The notes beneath the pieces were generated by a model. That model had not been told where the DNA came from and did not search any database. It saw only the letters and a program-made list of their open reading frames with translations. A stretch of 64,000 nt of DNA. Origin: Pseudomonadota bacterium (GTDB lineage Bacteria; Bdellovibrionota; UBA1018; CAIMNF01). Shown here one piece after another: positions 25,335 through 63,575 of this stretch (position 1 is its first letter; the number at the start of each line of letters is the position of its first letter). The position numbers were made by a program, and so were the translations under genes. The stretch is from contig JAIYBN010000001.1 in the NCBI GenBank assembly GCA_027488515.1, forward strand, positions 192,811 through 256,810, read 5' to 3'.

Positions 25335-25380
25335 GAATACCAGAGTATCGGGTTCGAGTAACAATTACAATTCATTGACA

Positions 25381-25953
25381 CTAGTTTATGGAAATTTTTG
25401 CCGACTCACCGTCGAGGATCACGTAAGACGCCCGGTCCAGTCGACCGACAGTCAAGTCATTGACAGGAACCACGACCACCACACTGCGGACCGCTTGACT
25501 CATGTCGAGTCCGAATACCGGGTCAAAGCAAACTTCATCCGTCGCCAATCCCAGAGAGTACTTTGCAGCATCCGCACGCGACAGGATGACCAACTCCTCG
25601 GGCCTGAGCGTCCAGGTCCCCGGCTCGAGTTCCCTCACCACCGGCCCACCTCCGCATCGCTCGAGTACCTCCACCCGGTATTGGCCACCACCGATGAACT
25701 TCAAGCGAACCGGCCTTTTTTCCTGGATGGAGAGGGTTTTCACCCGCTCGAGCTCGGTGGAGATCTCCCTCGCAGCCCGCAGGGACCTCCACTTGGGCAG
25801 ACGCTCTTTCACCACAGGTACGGCGCATAGTGAAAGAAACAGGATGAGCGCCGACCCCAGAATGAGGAATCGCTTCCGATTCTGTCGGATCCGCACCTGC
25901 TCATAGAGCTCAAAATCCCGCCACTGTACTTCTTCTTCTAAAGGCCGATCCAT
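25381..25953 (-). CDS. Hypothetical membrane-anchored protein between pilM and pilD.
   Basis: Start at an internal Met (MDRPLEEEVQWRDF...), one TM (FLILGSALILFLSLCAVPVV) and a soluble domain with no recognisable family. Confidence 0.4.
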   Translation of the reverse strand: MDRPLEEEVQWRDFELYEQVRIRQNRKRFLILGSALILFLSLCAVPVVKERLPKWRSLRAAREISTELERVKTLSIQEKRPVRLKFIGGGQYRVEVLERCGGGPVVRELEPGTWTLRPEELVILSRADAAKYSLGLATDEVCFDPVFGLDMSQAVRSVVVVVPVNDLTVGRLDRASYVILDGESAKISIN

Positions 25954-26733
25954 GCTGACACCCCGAAAAAGAGTTCTACCAGAGCCCCGAAGACCAGGAA
26001 AGGCCCATAAGGAATCTGGGTCCGAAGGACACCCTCTGAATCCCCCCCGGCAGCCCCCTGCCTCTTGGACCACGCCGCCATCGCCAGCCCCACCAGACTC
26101 CCTGTGATGGAGCTGATCAAAATCGCTGACCAGATGCCCCCGAAGCCGAGAAAAATCCCGATGGTTCCCATGAAGTTCACGTCACCTCCACCCAAACCGA
26201 CCCGTCCGGTGACCTTTTCGTAAAGCAGACCGAACAGAAAGAAAAATCCGAACCCCGCGACCGAGGCTGCCACCAGCTCCCAGGGGCCGTGCCTGAAATC
26301 GGAAAAGCAAGTCAGGAGCCCCACCCCCCAACCTCCGAAACTGAGCGTGTGCGGGATGATCCTGTGATCGAGGTCGATGAAAGTGACTGCGATACCGATC
26401 AGAATGAAAATCCAGACCCTGAACTGGTTGACCGCCTGGATCCAGTCACCCGGCAGTCCCAGATAGGAACCCCAGAACAAAAAAGCGGTCAAGAGCTCCA
26501 CCAGTGGATAACGGGGGGAGATCCTGATCCCGCAACCCGCGCACCGCCCCCGGAGCATCAGGTAACCGAGGACCGGGACATTGTGATACCAGCGGATCGC
26601 TTCCTTGCAGGACGGACAGCGACTCCCCGGATGAACGATCGACTCCTCGAGCGGCAACCGGTGAATCACCACGTTCAAAAAACTTCCCAACACCAGACCC
26701 AGAAGGACGACTCCGATCGATTCGATCATCATA
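25938..26733 (-). CDS. pilD: Prepilin peptidase PilD (A24 family leader peptidase / N-methyltransferase).
   Basis: Tetracysteine zinc motif CPSC...CAGC and polytopic membrane topology. Start placed at MMIESIGVVLLG (internal to the listed ORF). Confidence 0.85.
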
Positions 26734-27523
26734 AGTTCTTCCTGTAGAAAACCGCATTTCCGATGAGCATGAACAACAGGGCCCACGCCAGACCGTATCC
26801 CATCCGCTGGACCATCTCGAATCCGCCGAGCGCCACGTCGTAATAGACCCGGGTGTCCATCAACAGGACCTGCCCATTCGGTGTCAGTTGCATGAGAAGT
26901 GAGAAAACCGGAGATCCGTCGCCGGCCTGCTTTTTCAAGAAATCGAGCTGGTCGTGATTGTGACTCAGAAACAGGTAAGCCATGCACACCATCACCGAAA
27001 GCCCCTGTCGGAAAAACAGGGACACCAGCATTGCGATGGCGGAAACCATCAAGGACTCAATCCAGATCAACAGTGTGGCCTGAATCAAAGCCTCATTCAC
27101 CCCACCTCCGGTCACACTGAGTGCGACCCACAGCACTCCGGTCAGAAGCATCAGATTCACACCACAAAACCACGAGATTCCGATCCACTTTCCGAAAAAG
27201 TAGCTCACCCGCGAAACCGGCCTCGACAGTGGCAGGTAAGCCACCCGTTGCTCCACTTCGGACCTGAGCAATCTGGCACCGGCACCCCCTGCGACCAGGT
27301 ACACGGAAATGGCATTGATCATGATCCCCAAGTGAAGCATGACCCTGTCCTGGTGACCGTAGACCAGCAAGGCGGCGAGGTATCCGAAGAAAAGCAGAAG
27401 CAAGGACACGAAAAAAATATTGTACAGAATCCGCTCCCGGAGCAGATCTTGAAACGCCTGGAATGCGACGAACACCGTTTGTCTCGGGTACACCCCAATT
27501 CGATTCATGGCAGCGCCCTCCAC
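26729..27523 (-). CDS. ABC-2 type transporter permease (PilI-like position in a myxobacterial-type pil cluster).
   Basis: Six predicted TM helices and no ATPase motifs. Translationally coupled to the upstream ATPase and to downstream pilD. Confidence 0.65.
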   Translation of the reverse strand: MEGAAMNRIGVYPRQTVFVAFQAFQDLLRERILYNIFFVSLLLLFFGYLAALLVYGHQDRVMLHLGIMINAISVYLVAGGAGARLLRSEVEQRVAYLPLSRPVSRVSYFFGKWIGISWFCGVNLMLLTGVLWVALSVTGGGVNEALIQATLLIWIESLMVSAIAMLVSLFFRQGLSVMVCMAYLFLSHNHDQLDFLKKQAGDGSPVFSLLMQLTPNGQVLLMDTRVYYDVALGGFEMVQRMGYGLAWALLFMLIGNAVFYRKNL

Positions 27524-28864: not shown

Positions 28865-28923
28865 AGAATAATGGTATGGGTGGACGTAGGGAAGCCCAAA
28901 ATACCCTTTAAGGAGGGGTTCGT

Positions 28924-29607
28924 ATGGAACGTATGTTGGGAAAAAAACTGAGTCAAATGAGGAACGCCGAGGGTTTCACCTTGGTGGAACTCATGGTGGT
29001 CGTGGCAATCATCGGGATTCTGGCAACTCTCGCGGTCCCGCAGTACAAAAAGTTTCAGGCGAAGAGCCGGCAAAGTGAGGCCAGACTCTCTCTCGGTGGT
29101 GCTTACACCATCGAACAGAGCTTCGCTGCTGAAAACGCATCTTACACCACCTGCCTCGGGCAGGCCGGGTACAACCGCGACGGTGTGAGGTTCTACTACT
29201 CCGTCGGTTTCGCAGGTCCAGCCTTGAACCAGCAGACTTGCGGCCCGAACAATACCCTCGATTGCAACTTTACGGCGTGGCAGTTCGATCCAGCCACCCA
29301 GACCTATGCGGTTCAGGGTGATGCCAAGTGCGATGAGCAGGCCCAAAACATGGGGATCTTCATGGCGACTGCGGGTGAAAACGGGCAATTGGTTCCCAAA
29401 GATGCCGATACCGCTCGGGCCCGTCTGGACAAGGTAACGGTGGACGGGGGGAATGCCGTAACTGCCATTTCCCAGCAGACGTTCACGATCGGCGCCTCGG
29501 GAAGCATCCTGACTGCAGCCGGTACCGTGGCCTTGACGAACGCGTTCGACGGTTGGACCATCGACCAGAACAAGCAGTTGAAGAACAGCCAAAGCGGTTT
29601 GTTCTGA
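28924..29607 (+). CDS. pilA: Type IVa major pilin PilA.
   Basis: Strong RBS AAGGAGG 9 nt upstream. Class-III signal with G|FTLVELMVVVAIIGILA (E at +5). 227 aa with a Cys-containing C-terminal region. Confidence 0.9.
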   Translation: MERMLGKKLSQMRNAEGFTLVELMVVVAIIGILATLAVPQYKKFQAKSRQSEARLSLGGAYTIEQSFAAENASYTTCLGQAGYNRDGVRFYYSVGFAGPALNQQTCGPNNTLDCNFTAWQFDPATQTYAVQGDAKCDEQAQNMGIFMATAGENGQLVPKDADTARARLDKVTVDGGNAVTAISQQTFTIGASGSILTAAGTVALTNAFDGWTIDQNKQLKNSQSGLF

Positions 29608-29630
29608 TCCTGAGTATTCCGATTTCAGAA

Positions 29631-29666
29631 GGCCTCGGGAAGCGATTCCCGGGGCCTTTTTGTTTT
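29631..29666. terminator. Bidirectional rho-independent terminator between convergent pilA and the sigma54-activator gene.
   Basis: GGCCTCGGGAA-GCGA-TTCCCGGGGCC hairpin followed by TTTTTGTTTT on the plus strand. Confidence 0.65.
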
Positions 29667-30616
29667 CACTTGATCAACTCGAGGGCCCGTTCGGGATCTC
29701 CCTTTGCGAACACCAGGGCCTGCGCCCGGTAAAAGGCACGCACCTGCTCGATCACTTCGGCCATCTCGACGGGGCCCAGAGTGAAGTCGGCCTTCAGAAC
29801 CAGCTCACGCAATTTTCCAGCCTCTTTACGGGCGGAGAGCACCATCTCGGGAGGCAAGGTACCCACCTGGATTTTTGACCCCGACTCCAGGGTCGAGACC
29901 CGCTCCATGACATTCTCCAGCTCCCGGATGTTGCCGGGCCAACGGTGGGCCAGAATCACCTCAAGGGCTTCGGGTGTGAATCCCTCCAAGTGACGTTGGT
30001 GCTTTTCATTGAATCGTTTCAAGAACACCGATGCGAGCTCCTCGACATCCCCTGACCGGGTTCGGAGGGGTGGAGTTTCCAGGAGGATCACGTTGAGCCG
30101 GTAATAAAGGTCTTCCCGGAAGGTGCCTTTTTTCACTGCGTCTTCGAGGTTCCGGTTCGTAGCTGCGACAATGCGGACATCGATCTTGATATTCTCGTTT
30201 CCGCCGACCCGGCGGATGGTCCGGTCCTGGAGCGACCGGAGCAGTTTCACCTGCATGGTCAATGGCAACTCACCCACTTCATCGAGAAAGAGTGTGCCCC
30301 CGTCAGCCACCTGGAAGAGCCCTTCCTTGTCCGCAACGGCTCCGGTGAAGCTTCCCTTTTTATGACCGAACAACTCGCTCTCGATCAATGTCTCGGGGAT
30401 CGCCCCGCAATTCACCGCGACAAAAGGTCCGTCCTTCACCGCACTCAGCTCGTGAAGCGCACGCGCCACCAACTCTTTTCCGGTGCCACTCTCGCCGATG
30501 ATCAGGACATTGGTCTTCGAGGGGGCGACCCGCTCGATCATCTTCTTCAGTGCCGCCACTTGGGGAGACTTCCCCAACAAAGGTCTCTTGATCTGGTCGA
30601 TTGCCGCCATGGTCAC
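29666..30616 (-). CDS. Sigma54 activator domain protein (PilR-like position) lacking a receiver domain.
   Basis: AAA+ sigma54-interaction domain only (GESGTGKELVARALH, GSFTGA variant of GAFTGA, arginine-finger region). 316 aa. The N-terminus goes directly into the AAA+ domain. No clear Fis-type HTH at the C-terminus. Confidence 0.8.
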   Translation of the reverse strand: MTMAAIDQIKRPLLGKSPQVAALKKMIERVAPSKTNVLIIGESGTGKELVARALHELSAVKDGPFVAVNCGAIPETLIESELFGHKKGSFTGAVADKEGLFQVADGGTLFLDEVGELPLTMQVKLLRSLQDRTIRRVGGNENIKIDVRIVAATNRNLEDAVKKGTFREDLYYRLNVILLETPPLRTRSGDVEELASVFLKRFNEKHQRHLEGFTPEALEVILAHRWPGNIRELENVMERVSTLESGSKIQVGTLPPEMVLSARKEAGKLRELVLKADFTLGPVEMAEVIEQVRAFYRAQALVFAKGDPERALELIK

Positions 30617-31851
30617 TCCCCGCCGCCGGCGCTGCCGGCCATTTGGAATATGGGAAGGTACATGGAAATCATGAGACCACCCACAATTCCACCCATCACC
30701 ACGAGCATCACCGGCTCAATGAGCTTCAGCATGCCTTGGATCGCATTTTCCACTTCTTCTTCATAGAACTCGGCGATCTTCTCGAGCATCTTGTCGAGGT
30801 TACCGGTGTTCTCACCCACCGAGCTCATCTGGATACACATCCTCGGAAAGAGCTTGGGGAACTTGGACATGGCTGCCGTGAAGCTGGCCCCGAGTTCGAC
30901 GTCTTTCTTCATCTCGGTGATCGCGTCTTCGAACGCGACATGGGTCGCCGCCGCTTTGCAAATTTCGAGTCCGTCCACAATCGGCACACCGGATGCGAGC
31001 AGGGTCGCCAGTGTCCGGGTGAAACGGGCGACACCGCTCTTCACGATCAAGGGACCCGTGAGGGGCAAGCCGAGAGCGATGTTCTGCATCACGATCCGTC
31101 CTTCGTTGGTACGAAGGTAAGACCTCGCCATGTAGAACCCGACCCCGAGCATCCCGAGAATGGTCACGAGGTTGTCGATCACTGCGTGGGACAGCCACAA
31201 GACCACCTTGGTCGGGGCGGGCATTTCACCACCGCTGCTCAAAATCATCGACTCGAACTTGGGAATCACCACGGTGAGCATCAAGGTGATCACCCCGAGC
31301 GCGATCACCGTCACAGAAATCGGATAAGTCATCGAGCTCTTCAAGAGCTTCTTCAGTCGATAGGAGTTCTCGAGATACTTGCCGATCCGCTTCAGCATGA
31401 CATCAAGTGTTCCCGATGACTCCCCCGCCCGCACCAGGGCCACGAACACCCTTTCGAAGGTGTTCGGGTACATCGCAAAGCACTCCCAAAGGAAACTACC
31501 CCCGTTGATCCGTTCTTTGCAGGCACCGAGAATCCGGCGGAGTGTCGGATCCGTCTCCTGTTCGTGAAACAGTTCAATGGCCTGGATCAGGGGAACCCCC
31601 GAGGTGATCATGGTCTGAAGCTGTCGGATGAAGTTCATCAAGCGCTCGACATTGACCGTGTCCGAACCGCCCGCGAGGCCCTTGATGGCCGTACCGACGT
31701 TGATCTGGGTCAGGGAGGCCTTGGCGATCTTGTTGGGACGCAGTCCCTGGCCACGCAAGGCCATGCGAACTTCGCCCTCGTTGCTGGCCTCCATCTTTCC
31801 TTCGACTTTTTTCCCCGCTTTGTCCGAGGCGACGTAGACAAACTCAGGCAT
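30613..31851 (-). CDS. pilC: Type IV pilus inner-membrane platform protein PilC (GspF family).
   Basis: Two GspF-type repeats with three TM helices and the typical length. Located between pilT and the regulator. Confidence 0.88.
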   Translation of the reverse strand: MPEFVYVASDKAGKKVEGKMEASNEGEVRMALRGQGLRPNKIAKASLTQINVGTAIKGLAGGSDTVNVERLMNFIRQLQTMITSGVPLIQAIELFHEQETDPTLRRILGACKERINGGSFLWECFAMYPNTFERVFVALVRAGESSGTLDVMLKRIGKYLENSYRLKKLLKSSMTYPISVTVIALGVITLMLTVVIPKFESMILSSGGEMPAPTKVVLWLSHAVIDNLVTILGMLGVGFYMARSYLRTNEGRIVMQNIALGLPLTGPLIVKSGVARFTRTLATLLASGVPIVDGLEICKAAATHVAFEDAITEMKKDVELGASFTAAMSKFPKLFPRMCIQMSSVGENTGNLDKMLEKIAEFYEEEVENAIQGMLKLIEPVMLVVMGGIVGGLMISMYLPIFQMAGSAGGGE

Positions 31852-31863
31852 TCACCATTCTCC

Positions 31864-32925
31864 TCAGACCATCTTCCCGAGTTCGTCGGGCATGAGACTG
31901 TACGCCATGGCGTCGGCCTTGGTCAGGTTTCCTTTGCGGACCAGCTCTGCGAGCGATTGATTCATCGTTTGCATCCCGGTGCCGGCCTGTCCGGCTTGCA
32001 TGGCGCCGTAAACCTGGTGCATCTTGTCCTCACGGATCAGGTTCCGGATGGCCGTGTTCGGAGCCAGGAGTTCGAATGCGGCGGAACGCCCGGATTTCCC
32101 GGAATTCGGAACCAATTGTTGGGTCAAGACTCCGATCAATGTTGCAGCCAGCAACTGGCGGATCTGCGGTTGCTGGTGCGGAGGAAACACGTTCACCACC
32201 CGTGCGATCGTCTGAACGGCGCTGTTCGTGTGCATCGTTCCGAACACCATGTGACCGGTCTCAGCGGCGGTCAAGGCCATCTCGATCGTTTCGAGATCCC
32301 GCAACTCCCCCACCAGAATGAAGTCCGGGTCCTGCCGGAGTGCGTGCTTGAGGGCGTCGTGGAAGGTGTGTGAGTCCGCACCGATCTCGCGCTGGTTGAC
32401 AATGCAGTTCTTGTGCTGATGGACGAATTCGATCGGGTCTTCGAACGTGAGAATGTGCCCGTTGTCTTCGCGGTTCAGCAGGTCGATGATGGCCGCGAGG
32501 GAGGTGGATTTACCCGAGCCGGTGGGTCCGGTGACCAGGAACAGTCCGTTCGGCTGTTTGACGATCTTTCTGATCGCATCGGGGAGACTCAATTTGTCGA
32601 ACTCGGGAATGTTCACCGGGATCTTCCGGAAGACAGCGCCCATCGATCCACGCTGGAAAAACAGGTTTCCCCGGAATCGGGCCACATCCTTCACACCGAA
32701 CGAGAAATCGAGTTCGTTCGCGGTTTCGAACGTCTTCTTCTGCTGTTCAGTGAGGATTTCGTAGACCAGCTCCTTTATCGAGTCCGGCGTGAGGGGATCC
32801 GTCTTGGCCTTCATGAGTTTGCCATGGATCCTGAACTGCGGTGGCGTGTTGCAGGTGATGTGCAAGTCGGACGCGTCCTGATCCACCATCGCCCGGAGCA
32901 ATGCCGTGAGTGTCAGCTTTCCCAT
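31864..32925 (-). CDS. pilT: Twitching-motility retraction ATPase PilT.
   Basis: About 350 aa secretion ATPase. Walker A GPTGSGKST, Asp box, His box and the AIRNLIRE motif characteristic of PilT. Confidence 0.92.
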   Translation of the reverse strand: MGKLTLTALLRAMVDQDASDLHITCNTPPQFRIHGKLMKAKTDPLTPDSIKELVYEILTEQQKKTFETANELDFSFGVKDVARFRGNLFFQRGSMGAVFRKIPVNIPEFDKLSLPDAIRKIVKQPNGLFLVTGPTGSGKSTSLAAIIDLLNREDNGHILTFEDPIEFVHQHKNCIVNQREIGADSHTFHDALKHALRQDPDFILVGELRDLETIEMALTAAETGHMVFGTMHTNSAVQTIARVVNVFPPHQQPQIRQLLAATLIGVLTQQLVPNSGKSGRSAAFELLAPNTAIRNLIREDKMHQVYGAMQAGQAGTGMQTMNQSLAELVRKGNLTKADAMAYSLMPDELGKMV

Positions 32926-32949
32926 TTCAACGTCCCCTTCATGAATGCC

Positions 32950-34677
32950 TCACTGTTCCGCGGTCATCGAGACCGCTTCATCGACCGAGGTCCTGCCCTC
33001 GACCGCTTTCTTGAGTGCCGAAACCCTCAGCGTTTGCAGTCCGTATTGCTCGACGGCGGTCCGCTTGATCTCGATCGCTGTCCTGCCGGCCAGGGTCATC
33101 TCCTTGAGCTCGGAGAAATATTCGAGAACTTCATAGATGGCCACCCGTCCCTTGTACCCGGTGTTGTTGCACTCTTTGCAACCCTTCGGGCCGTAGAAAT
33201 TGGCGTTCGCCGCGAATTTGTTGATCCCCAGGGACTCCATTTTGTCGGCCGGAACCTTGACCGGTTGCTTGCAGTGCTGACAAAGGGTCCGGAGCAGTCG
33301 CTGGGCCACAATGGTGTTCACGGATGCGGTCACCAGGAAGGGCTCGATGCCCATGTTCACCATCCGGGTGATGGTCGAAACGGTGTCGTTCGTGTGAAGG
33401 GTGGATAAAACCAAGTGACCGGTCAGAGCCGCCTGAACCGCAACTTCACCCGTTTCGAAGTCCCGGATCTCCCCCACCAGAACGGTATCCGGATCCTGGC
33501 GGAGCAGGGCTCTCAAAACCGCGGCGAAGGTCAATCCGACATCCTTGTTCACTTGAACCTGGTTGATGCCCTCGAGGTTGTATTCCACAGGGTCTTCCAC
33601 GGTCGAAAGATTGTCAGAAACCTGGTTCAACTCCATGAGGGCCGAATAAAGGGTGGTGGTTTTCCCGCTACCGGTCGGACCCGTGACGAGCACCATTCCG
33701 TTCGGTTGGGCGATCCCCTTGCGGAAGATCTCCAATTGGCGGTCCTCGAATCCGAGCGTCCTGAGATCGAGTTGCAGGTTGCCCTTGGAGAGAATACGCA
33801 AAACCACCTTCTCACCGAAAAGGGTCGGGAGGGTGTTCACCCGGAAGTCGACTTCCTTGTTCCCGAGCTTGATCTTGATCCGTCCGTCCTGAGGCACACG
33901 GGATTCCGCGATGTCCATCCGGCCCATGATCTTGAAGCGCGCGACCACCGCACGTTTCATCTCCATCGGAATGTGTGTGACATCGATGAGCGCTCCGTCC
34001 ACCCGGATCCGGACACGGAAATCCCGCTCATAGGGTTCGACATGGATGTCCGAAGCCCCACGGCGGATGGCCTCGGTGAGTACGCTGTTCACCACAGAAA
34101 TGACCGGAGCATCATCCCCGGTGGCATTGTTCACATCGTGAACCTGGAATTGCTCGATCTGCTGGATCTGGACTTGTTCTTCCTTGCCACCCTTCGGGCC
34201 TTGGGCGTCCTTCTTGAATTGTTCGAGTGCCCGCCCGAGGTTCTGCGTTCCGGAATAATACTTCAGAAAAGCGGCGTCGAAAGCGGTGAACGTGGTCAAC
34301 ACCGCCTCGACATTCATTTTGGTCGCGAAACGGATGTCATCGAGAAATGCGATCTGTGTCGGATCAGGAACTGCCACAACGAGGATCCCCCGACTCATTT
34401 GAATCGGAATCGCTTGTGCCTTACGGGAGAGGTCCGCACTGATGGTGGCGACCACCTCGGGCTTCACCTCGAACTTGGCAAGATTGATGCTCTGGAGGGA
34501 GAACTTCTGGTTCAGGAACAGGAGCAGCTTCTGTTCCGAGAGAACTTTCTTCTCGATGAACTGACGGATGGCATCACCGTTGCTCTTGAAGATGGCCTCG
34601 GCATCCTGGTACTGGGATTGTGTGAGGAGCTTGTCCTTGTAAAGGAGCTCGACGAGTTTCCTGGACATCCCCTCCAT
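32950..34677 (-). CDS. pilB: Type IV pilus extension ATPase PilB (GspE family).
   Basis: N-terminal GspE_N domain, Walker A GPTGSGKTT, and the tetracysteine motif CQHC...CKEC. Confidence 0.92.
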   Translation of the reverse strand: MEGMSRKLVELLYKDKLLTQSQYQDAEAIFKSNGDAIRQFIEKKVLSEQKLLLFLNQKFSLQSINLAKFEVKPEVVATISADLSRKAQAIPIQMSRGILVVAVPDPTQIAFLDDIRFATKMNVEAVLTTFTAFDAAFLKYYSGTQNLGRALEQFKKDAQGPKGGKEEQVQIQQIEQFQVHDVNNATGDDAPVISVVNSVLTEAIRRGASDIHVEPYERDFRVRIRVDGALIDVTHIPMEMKRAVVARFKIMGRMDIAESRVPQDGRIKIKLGNKEVDFRVNTLPTLFGEKVVLRILSKGNLQLDLRTLGFEDRQLEIFRKGIAQPNGMVLVTGPTGSGKTTTLYSALMELNQVSDNLSTVEDPVEYNLEGINQVQVNKDVGLTFAAVLRALLRQDPDTVLVGEIRDFETGEVAVQAALTGHLVLSTLHTNDTVSTITRMVNMGIEPFLVTASVNTIVAQRLLRTLCQHCKQPVKVPADKMESLGINKFAANANFYGPKGCKECNNTGYKGRVAIYEVLEYFSELKEMTLAGRTAIEIKRTAVEQYGLQTLRVSALKKAVEGRTSVDEAVSMTAEQ

Positions 34678-56347: not shown

Positions 56348-56959
56348 ATGGATCAAGCAAAGGAGTTCCTCCTCCAGTACCAGGGGATTCAGGCCTATCT
56401 GGTATTTTATTTCACACTGATCGGATGTGGAATCGGCATGCCGATCAACTCCGATCTCACCTTGATTGCCGCCTCGGTGCTCGCTGCACTCGGTTTCTTC
56501 AAACTGCCGATCCTGATTCCGGTCGCCTTCCTCGGTCTCCTGAGCGGAGACACGATCAATTATCTCGTCGCGCGCAAGTACGGGCCGAGAATCCTGAAGA
56601 AGGCTCCCTTCAAGTGGATCCTCACGCCAGGCAAGGTCGCCGCTGCCGAACGTTATCTCGAAAAACGGGGAACCCGGTTCCTGTTTCTGGTCCGGTTCCT
56701 TCCCTTGATCCGGACGGCACTGTACTTCACCGCGGGCTCCTTGCAAGTTCGCGCCCGGACCTTTTTCCTTCTGGATGCGATTTCGACCGTGATCTACCTG
56801 CTCGGGCTCATGAATCTCGCCCATACCGCCGGTGCGAACATCGACTCCCTGATTGAGGGCTTCAAACGCTTCCAGTTCGGCTTGCTCGGATTCCTGCTCA
56901 CCGGATCCCTTTTCATCCTCTACCGGAATCGCCGGACAAAAAGGACTCTCGCCTCATGA
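56348..56959 (+). CDS. DedA-family (VTT/SNARE-associated domain) membrane protein.
   Basis: DedA signature region LVARKYGPRILKKAP...FLFLVRFLPLIRTALYFTAGS. About 200 aa with 4 to 5 TM helices. Confidence 0.8.
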   Translation: MDQAKEFLLQYQGIQAYLVFYFTLIGCGIGMPINSDLTLIAASVLAALGFFKLPILIPVAFLGLLSGDTINYLVARKYGPRILKKAPFKWILTPGKVAAAERYLEKRGTRFLFLVRFLPLIRTALYFTAGSLQVRARTFFLLDAISTVIYLLGLMNLAHTAGANIDSLIEGFKRFQFGLLGFLLTGSLFILYRNRRTKRTLAS

Positions 56960-59316
56960 ACCGTCTCCTGCTCTGGGTCTCGGCCCTCCCCTTGGTCCTC
57001 ATCGCGGCCTTCTTCCAGATCACACTCGATCTGGGGGAGCGCGGAGAACTGGAATCCAAATTCCTTCGGGGAACCATCTATCCGATCGCACGATCGGTGA
57101 CGGGAGCGCTGACCAACATCAAGTTCCGCTTGCGCGGACCCGAGTCCGGCAACCAGAAGATCGTGATTCTTGCGGCGGATGAGGAATCAATCGTTGCACA
57201 TGGCCGCTGGCCCTGGCATCGGGAGGTCTACGCCAAGATCATCGACCGGCTCCTCGCAATGGGAGTCAAGACCATCGGATTCGACATGGTGCTCTCGGAG
57301 CCTGAGGAGCGGATCCACCAAAAGGCCTACAAGCTCGTCGAAAAACACAACCCCTCCCTCTTGAAGGATTTCCTCGAACTTGAGAGCGATCCGCAACTGG
57401 CTCAAGCGATCGCTCGAGCAAAAGATAAACTGGTATTGGGCTACGCCTACGACGGGGCCTGCCAGCCCAGGTATGAGAAAGATGAATCTTGTCCACTCTC
57501 CGCAGCTGGAACCTCGGCGAAGATCCGGAATAGCATCGGAAAGTTCGCCATCGAGCAACCCTATCCCTTTCCCAAAGAAACCCTTTGGGGGACCTCGCTC
57601 AGGAACCTGTATCACTTAATCCCGAATATCGATCTCTTCAGTGACAATGCCCGTTATGCCGGGATCTTCAACGCGGATCTTGACCCGGACGGTTACATCC
57701 GGCGCTACGGATTGTTCTCCTTTTCCGAAAACCTCATCCTTCCTTCACTTGCAGTGAAGATGGCGGAGCTCGCCCGGGATGATCAGATCCAAATCGAATT
57801 CCGTCCGGACGGTCTCATCAAGAAAGCCTATTTCAAGAAGGACCCCGCAAATCCGATTCCGGTGACCCCGCTCGGGTACATGGATATCAACTTCAAAGGG
57901 CCGAACCATTACCAGCTCGAGAAAGAGATTCCGGGATACGAACCGTACTACTACATTCCGGTCCATCATTTGCTGGACAAAAAACTCACCCCCATCGATG
58001 AAGCAGAGCTCCAAGAAATCCTCTTTGACTCACATGTGCTGTTCGGTGCGACGGCTCTCGGGGTTTATGACATGAGGGCCTTCCCCTTCGATTCGAACAC
58101 CCCCGGGGTCGAAGGTCACGCGACAGCCCTCGACAACCTGATTGCCGGCAACCAACTCCGCTCGGCCAGCGCCATCCACATGAGCTGGTTGCCTTTGACC
58201 TTGATCGTGGTCTTCGGCCTGGTTTTCATCTTTCTGTTTTCGAGCCTGGACGCCATCCCGAGCATCCTCGTCTTCATCGGATTCTTGAGCGTCTTGGGTT
58301 GGATCGACATCCGCATCTTGTTCAAGAATCACATCAACCTGTCGACTGCTTTCCTCCTGATCGAGACCTTTCTCATTTTCGTCACCCTGCTCTCGATCCG
58401 GTACATCTTGGAGGAAAAGAAGAAGAAATTTGTGAAAGAGGCGTTCTCCAAATACCTCGCCCCGCAAGTCGTGGAACTGGTCCTCGAGGATCCGAGCAAG
58501 CTCCAGGTCGGCGGTGAGCGGAAGGAAGTCACCATCCTGTTCAGCGATCTCCGTGGCTTCACGAACTTTTCGGAGAACATGGACCCGAAGGTGCTCACCC
58601 AGTTCCTGAACGAGTACCTCTCCGAAATGACCGAGATCATCTTCCAACACGAGGGGACCCTCGACAAGTACATCGGGGACGCGATCATGGCCTTCTGGGG
58701 CGCACCCATCGACCAGAAGGATCATGTGGAGCGTGCGTGGCGGGCCGCCGTGGCCATGAAAAAGCGTCTCGACGAGATCGCACCGGACTTCAAAAAACGT
58801 TACGGGATCGACGTCAGTGCCGGGATCGGCATCAACTCGGGACTGGTCAGCGTCGGAAACATGGGCTCCAAGAGGATTTTCGAGTACACCGTGATCGGAG
58901 ATCACGTGAACCTCGCATCCCGACTGGAAAGCCTGACCCGATTGTACGGTGGAGACATTCTGAGTACCGAGGTGACCCGGGAGAGGCTCCCGGAAGGGGT
59001 CCAGGGACAATTCCACACCCGGATTCTCGACTCGGTGATCGTAAAGGGGAAGACCAAGGCGGTCGATCTGATCCAGATCTCCGAAGTGGAGTTCGACCCC
59101 GAGCTGATCCGCAACTTCACCGAGGCCCGCGAAGCATTCAAACACCGGGAATGGGAAGTGGCCCGGACCAAGTTCACGCTCGCCAGTGAAATCCAGAAAG
59201 CCCGCACCGGTTCGGTTGATCCGGTCTCCGAGATCTACCTCTCGCGTTGCGTGGAGTTCGAGAAAAATCCCCCTCCGCCCGACTGGGATGGAACGATAGA
59301 AATGCGCAGGAAATGA
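56956..59316 (+). CDS. CHASE2-domain membrane-bound class III adenylate/guanylate cyclase.
   Basis: N-terminal TM and periplasmic CHASE2-like domain, three TM helices, then a cyclase homology domain (EVTILFSDLRGFT; YIGDAIMAFWGAP; VGNMGSKRIFEYTVIGDHVNLASRLES). Confidence 0.85.
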   Translation: MNRLLLWVSALPLVLIAAFFQITLDLGERGELESKFLRGTIYPIARSVTGALTNIKFRLRGPESGNQKIVILAADEESIVAHGRWPWHREVYAKIIDRLLAMGVKTIGFDMVLSEPEERIHQKAYKLVEKHNPSLLKDFLELESDPQLAQAIARAKDKLVLGYAYDGACQPRYEKDESCPLSAAGTSAKIRNSIGKFAIEQPYPFPKETLWGTSLRNLYHLIPNIDLFSDNARYAGIFNADLDPDGYIRRYGLFSFSENLILPSLAVKMAELARDDQIQIEFRPDGLIKKAYFKKDPANPIPVTPLGYMDINFKGPNHYQLEKEIPGYEPYYYIPVHHLLDKKLTPIDEAELQEILFDSHVLFGATALGVYDMRAFPFDSNTPGVEGHATALDNLIAGNQLRSASAIHMSWLPLTLIVVFGLVFIFLFSSLDAIPSILVFIGFLSVLGWIDIRILFKNHINLSTAFLLIETFLIFVTLLSIRYILEEKKKKFVKEAFSKYLAPQVVELVLEDPSKLQVGGERKEVTILFSDLRGFTNFSENMDPKVLTQFLNEYLSEMTEIIFQHEGTLDKYIGDAIMAFWGAPIDQKDHVERAWRAAVAMKKRLDEIAPDFKKRYGIDVSAGIGINSGLVSVGNMGSKRIFEYTVIGDHVNLASRLESLTRLYGGDILSTEVTRERLPEGVQGQFHTRILDSVIVKGKTKAVDLIQISEVEFDPELIRNFTEAREAFKHREWEVARTKFTLASEIQKARTGSVDPVSEIYLSRCVEFEKNPPPPDWDGTIEMRRK

Positions 59317-59317
59317 T

Positions 59318-60313
59318 ATGAGCGCCAAAGAAGTCAACCTGAAACAGAAAGACATCCTTTTCGAGGAGGGCGACCCCTCGAAAAACCTCTACTTTGTCAA
59401 AAAAGGGGCGATCCGGCTCTTCCGCAGGAAGGGGGACGGGAAGATCGAGATCGACACCGTCCGCGCAGGCTCCGTATTGGGTGAGTTGGCGTTTTTCGAC
59501 GGCCAACCCCGCTCGGCTTCGGCGGAGGCCTTGCTTCCGACCGACCTGATCGAGATCTCCAAAGGGTCTCTCGACGATGCGCTTTCCAAGATCCCCGAGT
59601 GGCTGGTGACTTTGATCAAGACCATCAGTTCGCGCCTGAGGGCCGCGAACAACAAGGTCCGGATTCTGGAGAGCCTTTCGACCGAGTACGAAGTGGACAA
59701 GCACGGGAACCGTTCGAAGGAGTACTGCTTCGTGACCACTCCCGAATTGCTGAAGTTCTCGACCGCGCTGCTCACAGTGGCCTCCCGCTACGGCAAGAAC
59801 GAGAAGCCGGACGGAATCGAGTTCACCTCCGCCATGCTCGAGCGCTTCGCGACCCAGATCCTCCAGGTTCCCTCGGCCAAAGTGTTGAGCCTGATCGAGC
59901 TCATGAAGACGGTCAAGATCCTGAAAGACGATCTCATGCTCACCGACATCCGGTTCCTCGACCAGTTCATCCAATTCGTGAATGAACAGAACCTGACGGC
60001 CCACGAGAAGAGACAAACCCTTTCGGAATCCGGATTCAAGATCCTGGGCCTCATGGTCCAGAACAGGGCTCAAGCCAAGCCTCTCGCCGACTCGGTCGAA
60101 CGTCTCAACATCGGACCCGCCATTCAACAGGCCAAGATCCCCGTGGGACAGATCCAGGAGTTGCAGGACCAGGGCTTCATCAAGAACATCACGCTTGTCT
60201 CGGCGAACGAGGTACTGCTCGACTACGAGGGAAGTAACCTGCTGTTCCTGTACCGCGTGTACTGGGTTCTGACCGAGATCGACCGCCTCAACGAGGAGAA
60301 GCGGAAGAAATGA
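59318..60313 (+). CDS. Cyclic-nucleotide-binding domain protein with a C-terminal domain of unknown function.
   Basis: N-terminal cNMP-binding cassette (ILFEEGDPSKNLYFVKKGAIRL...GSVLGELAFFDGQPRSASAEAL). About 200 aa C-terminal region without a recognisable HTH. Start 2 nt after the cyclase stop. Confidence 0.75.
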   Translation: MSAKEVNLKQKDILFEEGDPSKNLYFVKKGAIRLFRRKGDGKIEIDTVRAGSVLGELAFFDGQPRSASAEALLPTDLIEISKGSLDDALSKIPEWLVTLIKTISSRLRAANNKVRILESLSTEYEVDKHGNRSKEYCFVTTPELLKFSTALLTVASRYGKNEKPDGIEFTSAMLERFATQILQVPSAKVLSLIELMKTVKILKDDLMLTDIRFLDQFIQFVNEQNLTAHEKRQTLSESGFKILGLMVQNRAQAKPLADSVERLNIGPAIQQAKIPVGQIQELQDQGFIKNITLVSANEVLLDYEGSNLLFLYRVYWVLTEIDRLNEEKRKK

Positions 60314-60992
60314 CGACGAAGCTCTCGATCTTGCGCTTCGAGACGAGTTCCTTGCCCTTCGCTTCAGCGGCCTTGCGGGATTTGAATCCCGAAAGCACGA
60401 CCCGATAACGGGTCTCCCCGTTCACCTTTGCAGTCCGGACCTCGGTCTTCAGTCCGCGTTTGGTGAAGACCCCCGTTTTTTTACGGGCGGCCTGGATGTT
60501 GGGGTAAGAGCCCAGTTGGACCGCAAAAGTTTCAGCGGGCGCCGCGTGCTTCTCTGTGTTTTTTTCTGCAGTTTTTTCCGCGACCTCTTCCTCTTCTTCT
60601 TCCTCTTCTTCAGCGACCGGAGGATGGGTCACCGCTGTCGGGAGGGCCATGGGCGGATGCACGGTTTTCTCGGTCGGGAGCTCGACCGGCTTCGGATGAT
60701 CCAACTTGATCCCGGATTCAGCCGCAGCCTTCTCGGTGGCACCCTCGATCGCGTCTTTGGTCGCCTGATCCACGTATTGGGCACCCTGATCCAGAACCGC
60801 ACGAGGAGGAGTCGACTCATGCCCACCCTCGACCTTCGGAGCGGGAGCCTCGGCCACCGGATCGTCCACGCGGATCTGCTTTCCGTAGTGCAGTCCGAGC
60901 GTGAAGCAGAATCCGAGGGCGGTCACCACGAGAAGTCCGAGAACGAACAACTCTTTCCAGCTGAAAATGAAAAATTTCTCGCTCTTTTGCAT
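60288..60992 (-). CDS. SPOR-domain (peptidoglycan-binding) membrane-anchored protein with an acidic linker.
   Basis: Start at MQKSEKFF, TM (LFVLGLLVVTALGFCF), poly-Glu tract (EEEEEEEEEE), and a C-terminal SPOR domain (FAVQLGSYPNIQAARK...RYRVVLSGFKSRKAAEA). Confidence 0.7.
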   Translation of the reverse strand: MQKSEKFFIFSWKELFVLGLLVVTALGFCFTLGLHYGKQIRVDDPVAEAPAPKVEGGHESTPPRAVLDQGAQYVDQATKDAIEGATEKAAAESGIKLDHPKPVELPTEKTVHPPMALPTAVTHPPVAEEEEEEEEEVAEKTAEKNTEKHAAPAETFAVQLGSYPNIQAARKKTGVFTKRGLKTEVRTAKVNGETRYRVVLSGFKSRKAAEAKGKELVSKRKIESFVVISSASPR

Positions 60993-61013
60993 CAAGTTCG
61001 AGTCTACTCCCGT

Positions 61014-61029
61014 TGGCGCGGTTTTTGTA
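61014..61029 (+). promoter_or_regulatory. Possible sigma54-type promoter upstream of the Flp-like pilin gene (imperfect).
   Basis: TGGCGCGGTTTTTGTA versus consensus TGGCACG-N4-TTGCW (2 mismatches). Predicted TSS falls within a few nt of the ATG at 61042, which would imply a leaderless or near-leaderless transcript. Confidence 0.3.
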
Positions 61030-61041
61030 GACCAAAGAAAC

Positions 61042-61218
61042 ATGAATCGAATCTCTTTGAAACGTCCCGACCGGAGCGGCCAAGGCCTGAGCGAATACAT
61101 CATTCTCGTCATGCTGATCGCGGTATGTTCGATCGCCGCTTCCCGGACGGTGGGCTCCACCATCAAAACCAAGCTCGACACCATCAACCAGAAACTCCTC
61201 GAGATCCACATCCCCTGA
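61042..61218 (+). CDS. flp: Flp/Fap-family (type IVb, Tad-type) prepilin.
   Basis: 58 aa. Basic leader (MNRISLKRPDRSG) followed by QGLSEYIILVMLIAVCSIAA, i.e. the G|XXXXEY class-III signal with a hydrophobic helix, then a short polar tail. Size and motif are typical of Flp pilins. Confidence 0.55.
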   Translation: MNRISLKRPDRSGQGLSEYIILVMLIAVCSIAASRTVGSTIKTKLDTINQKLLEIHIP

Positions 61219-61577
61219 ACCGGAGATGCGGACAAAGCCTGATCGAATTCCAGTGGGCGATGTTGCTCATCCTGCTTCCATTGGCCGGGGGGGCGGTCCG
61301 GATGGGTTGGATCGAATTCGCCCGGATCCGATGCGGACTCCGTGCCTTCCAGGCCGCCCGGGAAGAACTCCTCCATACCGCCGCCCCTGTGGTCCGTCTG
61401 GAGCCCTGCGGAGGCGGAATGGAGGAGCGGATCCGTCTCCTGCCCCTGGAACGCCTCGACCGGACCGGGCGGGATTCTCCGTCCTCGGTGGAATTCTCCT
61501 TCTCATGGCTCTCAGCGGGGGAACAGGCCTCTGGATTGCCGCCCGACACCTCCGCGCCATCACGGAGCGCCAGGTGA
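61215..61577 (+). CDS. TadE-like pseudopilin candidate (start codon uncertain).
   Basis: Frame translates ...NRRCG|QSLIEFQWAMLLILLPLAGGAV...IEFAR, resembling the TadE N-terminal motif (G|xxxVEFAL... / IEFGR). The only in-frame start upstream of the Gly is CTG at 61215, overlapping the flp stop. An ATG at 61260 would remove the motif. Confidence 0.35.
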   Translation: MNRRCGQSLIEFQWAMLLILLPLAGGAVRMGWIEFARIRCGLRAFQAAREELLHTAAPVVRLEPCGGGMEERIRLLPLERLDRTGRDSPSSVEFSFSWLSAGEQASGLPPDTSAPSRSAR

Positions 61578-62038
61578 ACTTCGATCGCTGTACGGGAATG
61601 GCGGTTCTCCGCGTGCGTTCCTGGATCACCGCACACGAAAAGTCCTGGAAACGGATCGAGTCGGCGCGAAGGATCACACTGGGCTTGCTCCCGACACCGG
61701 CCGGCCCGACCGCGGTCGAATCCTTCCGGATCCTCCTGGTGGCGGAACGGGGGATCCAGGAAAAATTCCGTCTGGAATGGATTCAAAGCTCCCTGCGCTG
61801 GAATCTCCTCACCGGGGTCGGTTGCCGCTTGCGCCGGCGCCCCGAGCGGAGTGACTTCCCGGAATACGATTTGATCCTGGTGGAGCCGGATGCGGAGGCA
61901 ATGCTGACCGGTGCCGGGTCCCGGATTCCGATTCCACGCGACGAATACCGGGTCAGGATCGCCTCCCGGAATCAAAACTCTTCCGCGGTGGCATGGAGGT
62001 CTCCCGATGAAACTTGGAAGGTCCGATGGATTCCCTGA
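61505..62038 (+). CDS. Hypothetical protein with an N-terminal hydrophobic segment (frame-2 ORF, real coding part only).
   Basis: The listed 270-aa ORF has a P/R/G-rich, non-protein-like N-terminal 90 aa. Protein-like sequence begins near MALSGGTGLWIAARHLRAITERQ... and continues to the stop. It overlaps the 3' end of the TadE-like ORF by about 70 nt. Confidence 0.3.
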   Translation: MALSGGTGLWIAARHLRAITERQVNFDRCTGMAVLRVRSWITAHEKSWKRIESARRITLGLLPTPAGPTAVESFRILLVAERGIQEKFRLEWIQSSLRWNLLTGVGCRLRRRPERSDFPEYDLILVEPDAEAMLTGAGSRIPIPRDEYRVRIASRNQNSSAVAWRSPDETWKVRWIP

Positions 62039-62186
62039 ACGCCAGCGGGGATCCGTATTCCTGGAGGTGGCACTGTGGGCAGGCCTGATCGTGTTCGTTC
62101 TGGTTCTTTGTGGCAATCGCTTCGCCCGGACCTATCGGGGCTTTTATCGCGCCTTGGAGCACCAGCGGTCGACCCTGCATTACTGA
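62007..62186 (+). CDS. Second small Flp/TadE-like prepilin-type protein.
   Basis: 59 aa. Good SD (GGAGG, 7-nt spacer). Leader MKLGRSDGFPERQRG followed by SVFLEVALWAGLIVFVLVL (G|XXXXEV-AL class-III-like motif plus hydrophobic helix), then a short tail. Confidence 0.45.
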   Translation: MKLGRSDGFPERQRGSVFLEVALWAGLIVFVLVLCGNRFARTYRGFYRALEHQRSTLHY

Positions 62187-62191
62187 GACAA

Positions 62192-62614
62192 GTGCGGGCC
62201 CTGCTGGGCCTGCTCGCGGGCCTCGTTCTGGTGGCACTGGCCCATCGAGGGTCCTTCGAGGCGGGGGCACGCCGGTTTCATGAGGAACACCTCCTCCCCG
62301 GAGAGGCCTGGCGTTCCGTACTGGCCACCCGCGGATTCCGTCCTCTTGCTTTGAACCGGGGTTCTCCGGGGGACGGCAAGGTCCGGATTTCACAGGATGG
62401 CCGGATCATCGAGTTTCCCGGTGGGATTCCTGACCTACCCACGGGGGTCCACATCCGGGGGGTCCCTGCCCCCAAACCGGATTGGATCGAGCTCAGCCCC
62501 GGAATTGCCGGTTTCGAAGCCTGGATCCGGAGCCTGGAAGCCCATCCGATTCCCCGGGCAAAGTCGACGAAGCCCCAGGTCAATTCGATTGACCCCAAAG
62601 AGTTCCGCTATTAG
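62192..62614 (+). CDS. Small membrane-anchored protein at the end of the pilin-like operon.
   Basis: GTG start 6 nt after the previous stop. N-terminal TM ALLGLLAGLVLVALA followed by a roughly 120-aa soluble domain. No family recognised. Confidence 0.35.
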   Translation: MRALLGLLAGLVLVALAHRGSFEAGARRFHEEHLLPGEAWRSVLATRGFRPLALNRGSPGDGKVRISQDGRIIEFPGGIPDLPTGVHIRGVPAPKPDWIELSPGIAGFEAWIRSLEAHPIPRAKSTKPQVNSIDPKEFRY

Positions 62615-62624
62615 AATCCCGGCC

Positions 62625-63575
62625 ATGCACACACGCCCCACCCGTCCGATTCTGACCGTCGGTTCCATGGCCTTCGACTCCGTTCGCACCCCAGCCGGGA
62701 AAGCGGACCATGTCCTCGGAGGCTCGGTGAATTATTTCTCTTTGGCCGCCTCACTGTTCACGCCGATCAAGATCGTCGCTGTGGTCGGTGATGACTTCCC
62801 GAAGGAGCACCTCGGATTCCTGAAAGAACGCAATGTGGACGTCTCCGGCGTGCAAGTCGCAGCCGGCAAGACCTTCCACTGGGTGGGTGAATACGACACC
62901 AACCTGAACGAGGCCAAGACCCTCGCCACCGCTCTGAACGTGTTCGAGCATTTCGACCCCAAACTTCCGGAAACCCACACCGACTGCCCCGTGGTCTTCC
63001 TCGCGAACATCGACCCGGTCCTGCAACTGCAGGTCCTGAACCAGGTTCGCGGTCATGAGTTCGTGGCCTGCGATTCGATGAACTTCTGGATCACCGGAAA
63101 GCCTGCGGAACTCAAGGAGACCCTGAAACAGGTGGATCTCCTCTGCATCAACGAAAAAGAGGCGTTCCTGCTCTCTGACGAAAAGAGCCTCGAAAAAGCA
63201 GCCCGCAAGATCCAGTCCATGGGCCCTTCCAACATCATCATCAAACGTGGTGAATACGGCTCGGCCCTCTTCACCCCGACCGGTACTTTCCTCGCCCCTG
63301 CATTCCTGGTCGACGAAGTCATCGATCCGACCGGAGCCGGAGACAGCTTTGCCGGAGCCGTGATGGGTTATCTGGCCGAGGCCGGAGCCAATCGTGCGAT
63401 GATGAAGAACGATCCCCAAGCCTGGGATCAACTCCTCCGCCGTTCGGTCGTCTACGGAACCGTGATGGCGAGCTTCACCATCCAGGATTTCAGTATCGGC
63501 CGTCTGAAGACCCTCTCCCGCGAAGACCTGATGCACCGGAGAGAGAAATTCATGAGAATGATGAGCGTCGGATGA
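62625..63575 (+). CDS. PfkB-family carbohydrate/nucleoside kinase (ribokinase-like).
   Basis: PfkB signature DPTGAGDSFAGAVMGYL and a ribokinase-like fold. Start at MHTRPTRPILTVGSMAFD, internal to the listed ORF. Confidence 0.8.
   Translation: MHTRPTRPILTVGSMAFDSVRTPAGKADHVLGGSVNYFSLAASLFTPIKIVAVVGDDFPKEHLGFLKERNVDVSGVQVAAGKTFHWVGEYDTNLNEAKTLATALNVFEHFDPKLPETHTDCPVVFLANIDPVLQLQVLNQVRGHEFVACDSMNFWITGKPAELKETLKQVDLLCINEKEAFLLSDEKSLEKAARKIQSMGPSNIIIKRGEYGSALFTPTGTFLAPAFLVDEVIDPTGAGDSFAGAVMGYLAEAGANRAMMKNDPQAWDQLLRRSVVYGTVMASFTIQDFSIGRLKTLSREDLMHRREKFMRMMSVG

Follow-up and report, generated by a model that had tools for sequence, protein, structure and literature searches.

A conserved five-gene module headed by flp in a Bdellovibrionales genome, probably a dispersed set of Tad pilins and minor-pilin-like proteins

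Background

All Bdellovibrio-like predators carry flp genes outside the tad locus, among them flp3 (bd3297) and flp4 (bd4000) in HD100, and TadV is missing from Bdellovibrio genomes (PMC5430801). Expression of flp4 is seen in attack phase, and the gene is indispensable for predation (PMC5430801), which shows that orphan pilins of this kind can have a function. Prey invasion by Bdellovibrio requires Tad pili and orphan flp genes, and the genes that keep company with the orphan flp genes have remained undescribed. In this work we focused on a stretch of 64,000 nucleotides (contig JAIYBN010000001.1 of assembly GCA_027488515.1, positions 192,811 to 256,810), hereafter called the window, in which an flp gene opens a run of small, tightly packed genes.

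The Tad genes of HD100 are spread over about six loci, including a lone tadG, and comprise no TadV; PilD cleaves Flp1 of B. bacteriovorus in Escherichia coli, and signalling genes lie beside tad genes in HD100 (bioRxiv 10.64898/2026.07.08.737194). Myxococcus has four scattered KilLMN clusters, encoding TadE/F/G-like proteins, which provide interchangeable pilus tips, and tip-like complexes have been predicted in B. bacteriovorus (PMC12075869). Given these precedents, pilin genes without adjoining machinery are to be expected in the Bdellovibrio-like group.

An earlier note, made from the letters of the window alone, had described an operon of Flp-type and TadE-like pilin genes lacking Tad assembly genes, and had called this locus unusual. 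The latter was overstated, as pilin-only flp loci are already the rule in the group and such a layout is expected biology. The novelty lies in what accompanies flp: four unannotated families (ORF2 to ORF5; ORF, open reading frame), minor pilins in miniaturised form and an odd translation layout with CTGA junctions, missing canonical starts and nested frames. We propose that the locus is probably a dispersed module of Tad pilin and minor pilins, which supplies subunits to a Tad machine with genes elsewhere and depends on PilD for maturation.

Methods

The window was aligned with five orthologous loci from other assemblies, and the synonymous share of the differing codons was counted for each reading frame. 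Fetched loci (designated by L numbers) were probed with TadA, TadB and RcpA of B. bacteriovorus, taken from the supplement of PMC5430801, and with PilB, PilC and PilQ of the window. Two distant flp loci, L025 (44% GC) and L027 (68.5% GC), were recovered by the pattern GQGLSEY.

Results and discussion

Five cistrons lie tightly packed on the plus strand at 61042-62614: flp, ORF2, ORF3, ORF4 and ORF5 (Table 1). Over the six orthologous loci the synonymous fraction was 0.33-0.74 in the proposed frames, against about 0.01-0.17 in the other frames. These frame-specific fractions identify the five ORFs as real genes rather than chance frames, and all five are under purifying selection, each in its own frame. 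The fraction reached 0.63-0.74 for flp, 0.33-0.50 for ORF2 (over 61210-61480), 0.41-0.64 for ORF3 from about 61450 (lower in a variable stretch, and 0.05-0.17 in the ORF3 frame across ORF2), 0.35-0.46 for ORF4 and 0.35-0.52 for ORF5 from about 62140, with background values over 62075-62170. The compact, overlapping operon of 4 to 5 genes divergent from a SPOR gene, as the earlier note had it, is thus real and resolves into five cistrons.

The closest representative genome, 'Proteobacteria bacterium D4_MAG_00031', shares 89.6% nucleotide identity over 13 kb, and other close representatives are 'Bdellovibrio sp. ZAP7' and 'Bdellovibrionales bacterium'; judged by the names of these relatives, the source organism is a Bdellovibrionales metagenome-assembled genome (MAG). 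The order SPOR gene (minus strand), flp, ORF2, ORF3, (ORF4), ORF5, pfkB recurs at loci of 46 to 61% GC, in the window clade, in L014 (an 'Oligoflexia bacterium' MAG, 61% GC), in L016 and in L018. The latter is a 46%-GC contig whose ORF3 is merely 22% identical, yet its module has the same order. Local hidden Markov models (HMMs) confirmed ORF2 to ORF5 in the distant module loci and in three short metagenome contigs.

By its sequence, the first gene of the module clearly encodes an Flp. At 58 residues the product lies in the range of about 50-90 usual for Flp/Fap prepilins, and it has a basic leader, a G↓XXXXEY motif (the arrow marks the putative cleavage position) and an adjoining hydrophobic stretch, the hallmarks of these proteins. 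Its N-terminal region, RSG↓QGLSEYIILVMLIAVCSIAAS, contains the motif G↓QGLSEY, which matches G↓XXXXEY and does not vary in any relative; among six relatives, 22 residues of the mature part are identical throughout, and the leader is variable. The Pfam model Flp_Fap (PF04964) matched at E=2.7e-4 with 21.1 bits, below its gathering score of 32.2; by way of calibration, the Flp of the complete tad locus L025 scored just 17.1 bits against the same model. Over 42 residues, the Flp proteins of the window and of L025 share 45% identity (E=3e-12), and the former gave weak profile matches to the solved Tad pilins 8u1k and 8u2b. The identification of an Flp-like prepilin in the earlier note therefore stands.

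The module as a whole is best read, from its sequences, as an Flp-type major pilin, three very small minor-pilin-like proteins (ORF2 to ORF4) and a single-pass membrane accessory protein (ORF5). In ORF2 the motif RRCG↓QSLIEFQW is followed later by IEFAR, and changes between loci are mostly in third codon positions, the protein being conserved. Gln+1 and Gly-1 occur in every locus that has a leader, Gly-1 thus in every locus except L014; Glu+5 and two Cys are common to all loci. Conservation extends to near 61472 (about 85 residues); the tail up to the stop codon at 61575-61577 is unconserved and overlaps ORF3. A single-sequence AlphaFold2 (AF2) model of ORF2 was of low confidence (predicted local distance difference test score, pLDDT, 53), with a helix at residues 4-54 and a beta-hairpin. 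The ORF2 of L014 (10165-10425 in that MAG) opens at (M)TELLLALFL, with neither leader nor Gly; it is a 'trimmed' prepilin, which would need no peptidase, and resembles in this the trimmed Flp2 (MXXEY) of Bdellovibrio tad loci (PMC5430801).

ORF4, the 59-residue pilin-like protein of the earlier note, carries QRG↓SVFLEVALW and starts at an ATG with GGAGG 7 nucleotides upstream. It overlaps the end of ORF3 by 32 nucleotides and the called ORF5 by 112, and its Gly-1, Glu+5 and LW pair do not vary among nine loci, three of which are the distant L014 (61% GC), L016 and L018 (46% GC). ORF4 and ORF2 were aligned in register by hhalign with a probability of 54%, and profile-profile comparisons brought the Gly...Glu motifs of flp, ORF2 and ORF4 into register, at probabilities that were low to moderate (33-54%). 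ORF3 follows the pattern R-x-G↓FSVLGG (RAG↓FSVLGGILLL), with Gly instead of Glu at +5, and has two conserved Cys (FDRC and GVGC); the conserved Cys pairs of ORF2 and ORF3 suggest export. In its AF2 model (pLDDT 82), an N-terminal helix of 70 residues is joined by another helix and by a sheet of three strands. The N-terminus of ORF5 is basic; one transmembrane segment, a periplasmic domain of about 120 residues and a C-terminal IDPKEFRY follow (seven orthologs aligned), and the protein contains no prepilin motif. ORF3 and ORF5 correspond to the two further proteins with hydrophobic N-terminal segments of the earlier note, whose statement that all candidates carry Glu+5 holds for flp, ORF2 and ORF4 and fails for these two.

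ORF2 (G↓QSLIEF) and ORF4 (G↓SVFLE) have the class III signal of TadE and TadF, i.e. Gly, Glu+5 (typically as VEF) and a hydrophobic helix. However, 'TadE-like', the designation of ORF2 in the earlier note, describes a resemblance at the motif level only: the frame is real, and ORF2 and ORF4 from five lineages gave no match to TadE (PF07811) up to a maximal E of 10, and none in NCBIfam. The best Pfam match of the window ORF2 was PF13400, the TadG N-terminal domain, at E=0.15. A profile of ORF3 retrieved 129 representative clusters at E<1e-3 among 1.84 billion proteins; of 84 family members none matched any relevant Pfam or NCBIfam family, and none matched PF13400 at E<=0.1, unlike the TadG of L025, which does so at E=2.9e-7. 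At about 190 residues and in its AF2 model, ORF3 also has neither the large size nor the C-terminal modular domain of TadG. Sequence-profile searches of the PDB found no relatives of ORF2 or ORF3, and ORF5 had no relative in Pfam, NCBIfam or the PDB. Apart from the sub-threshold Flp_Fap match of flp, no module protein matched N_methyl or another pilin HMM of Pfam, and none has the N-terminus G↓F(T/S)LxE of type IVa pilins and type II secretion pseudopilins; residue +1 is Gln in flp and ORF2, Ser in ORF4, and Phe, without Glu5, in ORF3. Two TadE-like prepilin proteins of the complete tad locus L025 also lack a Pfam match. Since proteins of that locus fail or score low as well, such failures weigh little against a Tad affiliation in this lineage. 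The tad locus of the Ralstonia megaplasmid, taken for a reference TadE, proved to be unannotated, and only a TadG-like gene was found there.

The complete tad loci offer a closer comparison. In L025, flp is followed by genes for TadG (PF13400), RcpC, a secretin, an FHA-T2SSE ATPase and T2SSF (Pfam). Both L025 and L027 hold a parallel trio, consisting of a TadG-like protein (R-G, hydrophobic helix, no Glu5), a protein with G↓QSLVE or G↓TALAEF, and a mini pilin (61 and 52 residues, respectively) encoded immediately before rcpC. Compared with this structural set, the window module gives the impression of a smaller version that has become detached. The TadA ATPases of these two loci (L025 16884-18563, L027 16236-17927) carry an FHA domain at the N-terminus (E=1.8e-17 in Pfam for L025). 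B. bacteriovorus reportedly has a TadZ-TadA fusion instead.

Start codons and overlapping frames

In the eight loci of the window clade no ATG, GTG or TTG lies upstream of the conserved N-terminus of ORF2. In all eight, flp ends in ...ATC CCC TGA, and the CTG at 61215, which overlaps the flp stop codon (CTGA), is the only candidate and the presumed start of ORF2. The homologous junction is ATGA in L016, L021 and L022 and GTGA in L014, and L018 has an ATG 5 nucleotides upstream of the flp stop; from this comparison we infer that ORF2 may be translated by reinitiation at the CUG. A -1 slip on C-CCC-UGA joining Flp to ORF2 was considered and rejected, as the cleavage site would then face the periplasm.

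For ORF3, gene callers give 270 residues from the ATG at 61226. The nearest canonical starts upstream of the conserved part (61331, 61307, 61253 and 61226) all lie within ORF2, those at 61253 and 61307 arising from Trp codons of ORF2. The ORF3 frame is open through the whole of ORF2 in every window-clade locus, with a simulated chance of 0.12-0.25 per lineage, and more than 30 divergent representatives of the ORF3 family are called with N-terminal extensions of 60-72 residues. One possibility raised by these sequences is a long, unconstrained ORF3 leader, overprinted on ORF2 and removed at G↓F. The GTG at 61574, which forms GTGA with the ORF2 stop, was rejected as the ORF3 start because the 100 nucleotides upstream of it are under selection in the ORF3 frame. 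A programmed -1 frameshift between ORF2 and ORF3 was likewise rejected, there being no conserved slippery heptamer (GGGTTTC or GGGTTTT occurs in L004 and L007 only), and an ORF2-ORF3 fusion would place the Cys-bearing domain of ORF3 on the wrong side of the membrane. ORF5 may start at GTG 62075 (ATG in relatives) or, as its frame-specific selection begins only near 62170-62185, at CTG 62183 (TTG in two relatives), which overlaps the ORF4 stop codon.

Public gene calls systematically mis-annotate this locus. They miss ORF4 in every locus and ORF2 in most, and they extend ORF3 to 235-270 residues, of which the first 45-80 are ORF2 read out of frame, the overall lengthening being put at 60-80 residues; extended calls or call errors were noted in L001, L002-L005, L008-L010, L016 and the window (61226-62038). 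In L016 a spurious 158-residue minus-strand gene is called over ORF3.

Such inconsistent gene models, the lack of a canonical start for ORF2 and of one close to the conserved N-terminus of ORF3 are what a decaying tad remnant would show, the missing starts and overlapping frames then being signs of pseudogenisation. This is scarcely credible in view of the purifying selection in every frame, the lack of any internal stop codon or frameshift among eight independently assembled loci of the clade, the CTGA junction invariant in eight loci, and a gene content and order kept across deep divergence. The module is no remnant, and that part of the earlier suggestion of an orphan or remnant tad module with its machinery elsewhere falls away; the orphan module itself remains the best supported of the three readings then offered.

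Assembly machinery

No Tad gene was present among the scanned large ORFs of the window, and no Tad ATPase, platform or secretin gene was found within 10 kb of any module locus examined, including the 10 kb downstream in relatives. The same probes detected RcpA, TadA (E=3e-136 and 1e-131) and TadB 5-9 kb downstream of flp in L025 and L027. The lack of nearby Tad/Cpa assembly genes stated in the earlier note is thus confirmed, and is explained by the scattered Tad layout of the group.

The window does contain, as the note had also seen, a type IVa pilus cluster from PilQ to PilB (20596-34677), with a PilD-type peptidase that has both A24 domains. Its presence where no Tad gene is found, together with the action of PilD on Flp1 of B. 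bacteriovorus, gives some ground to the idea that the Flp and small pilins are not only processed by PilD but polymerised by the type IVa machinery (PilB/PilC/PilMNOPQ) 26-40 kb upstream, as a second fibre type. We consider this very unlikely. The window Flp is homologous to the Flp of complete tad loci, no module protein combines Phe+1 with Glu+5 (G↓F-T-L-x-E), and there is no synteny between the module and the type IVa cluster, which are separated by about 26 kb of unrelated or housekeeping genes, among them ftsZ, ftsA, ribF for riboflavin kinase, and those for acetyl-CoA synthetase and CinA. To our knowledge, no Flp (about 45 mature residues, no globular domain) is assembled by a type IVa motor. 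What is plausible in the earlier proposal is PilD, encoded 34 kb from the module, as a shared prepilin peptidase.

ORF2 to ORF5 belong to no described family and the module is always free of local machinery, which would also suit a novel minimal fibre or pseudopilus working without a dedicated ATPase, platform and secretin, or with a machine of another type. The organism's group is nevertheless documented to have Tad machines elsewhere in the genome, and, as far as we know, no filament with class III signals (the type IV filament superfamily) forms without both an ATPase and a platform protein. Such a machine-free fibre, the third suggestion of the earlier note, found no support and appears highly improbable.

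Proposed function of the module

The reading that we prefer, a dispersed Tad module matured by PilD, would work as follows. The four prepilin-like products would insert into the inner membrane by their N-terminal hydrophobic helix, and their short basic leaders would be removed after the conserved Gly. The PilD of the type IVa cluster is the likely peptidase, as the group lacks TadV; its link to the module prepilins is inferred by analogy with B. bacteriovorus. A Tad ATPase, platform and secretin, with genes in another part of the genome, would then assemble the cleaved products. ORF3, which lacks Glu5 as do the tip-most subunits of related systems, may form with ORF2 and ORF4 a priming or tip complex beneath which Flp polymerises, and ORF5 would serve as a membrane accessory protein. 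The stop-start overlaps (CTGA, and the ORF4 ATG inside ORF3) would couple translation, and weak non-AUG starts may keep the minor subunits scarce relative to Flp.

Several points weigh against this reading. Within the 64 kb of the source genome and the 10-kb flanks of relatives that were covered, no Tad machine was found. ORF2 to ORF5 match no TadE, TadF or TadG model of Pfam or NCBIfam; ORF2 and ORF4 fall well short of known TadE and TadF (about 130-190 residues in total) in size, and the globular beta domain of these proteins is missing from both. In the window clade ORF2, and perhaps ORF3 and ORF5, have no canonical start at their conserved N-termini, so that their expression level is uncertain. 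Finally, synteny lends no support to orthology with flp4, its upstream neighbour bd2719 being an RHS protein or element where a SPOR gene is found here.

A further-reaching version of the proposal is conceivable, though we hold it to be doubtful: the module may be a self-contained, swappable 'filament cartridge' with its own Flp, a miniaturised tip or priming set of three members and a membrane adaptor, which competes with the Flp of the tad locus for a shared Tad motor and PilD. Its subunit ratios would be hard-wired by the overprinted operon, either through non-AUG reinitiation at the CUG of CTGA or through long, discarded leaders that overlap the upstream gene.

Flanking genes and other features of the window

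In all module loci the SPOR gene is the adjacent, divergent upstream neighbour of flp, from which it is separated in the window by a gap of only 49 nucleotides. It is a conserved neighbour rather than an established member of the module. As the module is found between the SPOR gene and pfkB in all lineages, down to an ORF3 identity of 22%, the five genes could alternatively be a non-pilus operon of small inner-membrane or periplasmic envelope proteins tied to these neighbours, which encode a SPOR protein that binds the cell wall and the sugar kinase PfkB, with Gly...Glu N-termini that stay uncleaved. The absence of a pilin motif from ORF5 and the failure of ORF2 to ORF4 in pilin HMM searches would agree with that. 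We nonetheless regard it as unlikely, because the first gene is clearly an Flp (invariant G↓QGLSEY, homology to tad-locus Flp), because Gly-1 and Glu+5 are the invariant positions of ORF2 and ORF4 across distant loci, as peptidase recognition and filament packing predict, and because pfkB appears to own a promoter.

That promoter (62589-62617) is sigma-70-like (TTGACC, 17-nucleotide spacer, TAGAAT; 10/12 matches) and lies within the last codons of ORF5. It ends 7 nucleotides before the pfkB ATG at 62625, in a stretch (62586-62625) almost nucleotide-invariant in all relatives, and the pfkB transcript may be leaderless. In view of this near-invariance, the conservation of IDPKEFRY at the ORF5 C-terminus may partly reflect the embedded promoter. 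Upstream of flp, the motif listed in Table 1 is the sole match in the window to the pattern TGGCNCNNNNTTTGNA, with 0.10 expected, and it is kept across the window clade with small changes. Its -12 element reads TTGTA or TTGAA, not TTGC, so that the usual GC is missing; we consider this candidate sigma-54-type promoter as a lead only. An Rfam scan of 60200-63000 found no RNA family.

The pair of genes for a cyclase and a cyclic-nucleotide-binding protein, to whose proximity the earlier note had drawn attention, is syntenic with the module in the window clade and L016 only; it is absent from L018 and rearranged in L014, so that the association holds in one sub-clade. The cyclase is the second of two CHASE2-domain sensors in the window, an adenylate/guanylate cyclase followed by the cyclic-nucleotide-binding protein (56956-60313); the first, a histidine kinase, has a sigma-54 response regulator as its partner (3800-7259). 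The linker of the SPOR protein holds a run of nine Glu (EEEEEEEEE; 60585-60615, minus-strand gene), a low-complexity stretch of no obvious significance. In L014 (7627-9088) and L018 (7265-8744), which are the module loci most distant from the window, the SPOR gene is accompanied by genes for a mannose-1-phosphate guanylyltransferase and for a cupin (mannose-6-phosphate-isomerase-like), and pfkB lies downstream. A link of the module to sugar-nucleotide metabolism, possibly glycosylation, drawn from these neighbours and PfkB, is pure speculation.

Table 1. Positions of the module genes, their neighbours and other relevant features of the window
Feature	Position	Strand	Remarks
Sigma-54 activator (first of two in the window)	5832-7259
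PilQ	20596-22356		
PilO, PilN, PilM	22853-25364
PilD-type prepilin peptidase	25938..26987	-	A24_N_bact E=7.4e-35, Peptidase_A24 E=1.1e-13
Sigma-54 activator within the type IVa cluster (second of two in the window)	29666-30616
PilC	30613-31851
PilT	31864-32925
PilB	32950-34677
SPOR-domain membrane protein gene, divergent	60288..60992	-	Pfam SPOR E=1.7e-10
Candidate sigma-54-type promoter motif	61014..61029	+	TGGCGCGGTTTTTGTA; 12 nucleotides upstream of flp ATG
flp, 58-residue Flp-type prepilin	61042..61218	+	Leader MNRISLKRPDRSG, mature QGLSEYIILVMLIAV...
ORF2, small prepilin-like protein	61215..61577	+	(L/M)NRRCG↓QSLIEFQWAMLLILLPL...RIRC...PCGGG...RIRLLPLERLDRTG
ORF3, about 190 residues	61457..62038 (conserved from about 61463)	+	RAG↓FSVLGG, then hydrophobic helix
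ORF4, 59-residue mini prepilin-like protein	62007..62186	+	MKLGRSDGFPERQRG↓SVFLEVALWAGLIVFVLVL...
ORF5, single-pass membrane protein, 179 residues as called	62075..62614	+	Transmembrane segment LRQVRALLGLLAGLVLVALA
PfkB-family kinase gene (pfkB)	62625-63575		Downstream of ORF5

Comparison with known systems

At least one orphan flp heads a conserved five-gene module, which suggests that one motor may serve these predators for a variety of filaments and tips. The module defines four unannotated protein families, that of ORF3 being represented by the 129 clusters mentioned above, and the locus is a natural test case for non-AUG translational coupling.

The nearest counterparts are flp3 and flp4, with which the module shares a short Flp gene of the G↓XXXXEY type outside the tad locus of a Bdellovibrionales genome, and a need for a shared peptidase, as TadV is absent from the genus. 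The description of flp3 and flp4 is one of single genes (PMC5430801), with no downstream set of three prepilin-like genes and a membrane protein. The scattered Tad system of HD100 is alike in its dispersed genes and, presumably, in PilD as the peptidase; its inventory rests on recognisable TadE, TadF and TadG, whereas ORF2 to ORF5 escape the Pfam and NCBIfam models.

Three prepilin-like genes at a distance from the machinery are also a feature of the KilLMN Tip clusters of Myxococcus. Their products have been suggested to build a helix-bundle tip by which a Tad pilus is primed and customised; they are predicted to be disulfide-rich, and extra Flp-type pilins are associated with them (PMC12075869). 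KilL, KilM and KilN are, however, homologues of TadE, TadF and TadG whose beta domains are sizeable, the distal domain of KilN being large and variable. In the module, the mature prepilin-like proteins comprise about 45, 75 and 190 residues; a large variable domain is missing from all of them, and HMMs reveal no relationship. An Flp of its own and a non-pilin membrane protein further set the module apart from the Kil Tip clusters.

The complete tad loci L025 and L027 share with the module the same GQGLSEYI N-terminus of Flp and a parallel minor set. They continue into RcpC-RcpA-FHA-TadA-TadB, which the window module does not; their gene order differs, and their TadG-like and TadE-like proteins have 283-492 residues, as compared with 85-190 in the module.

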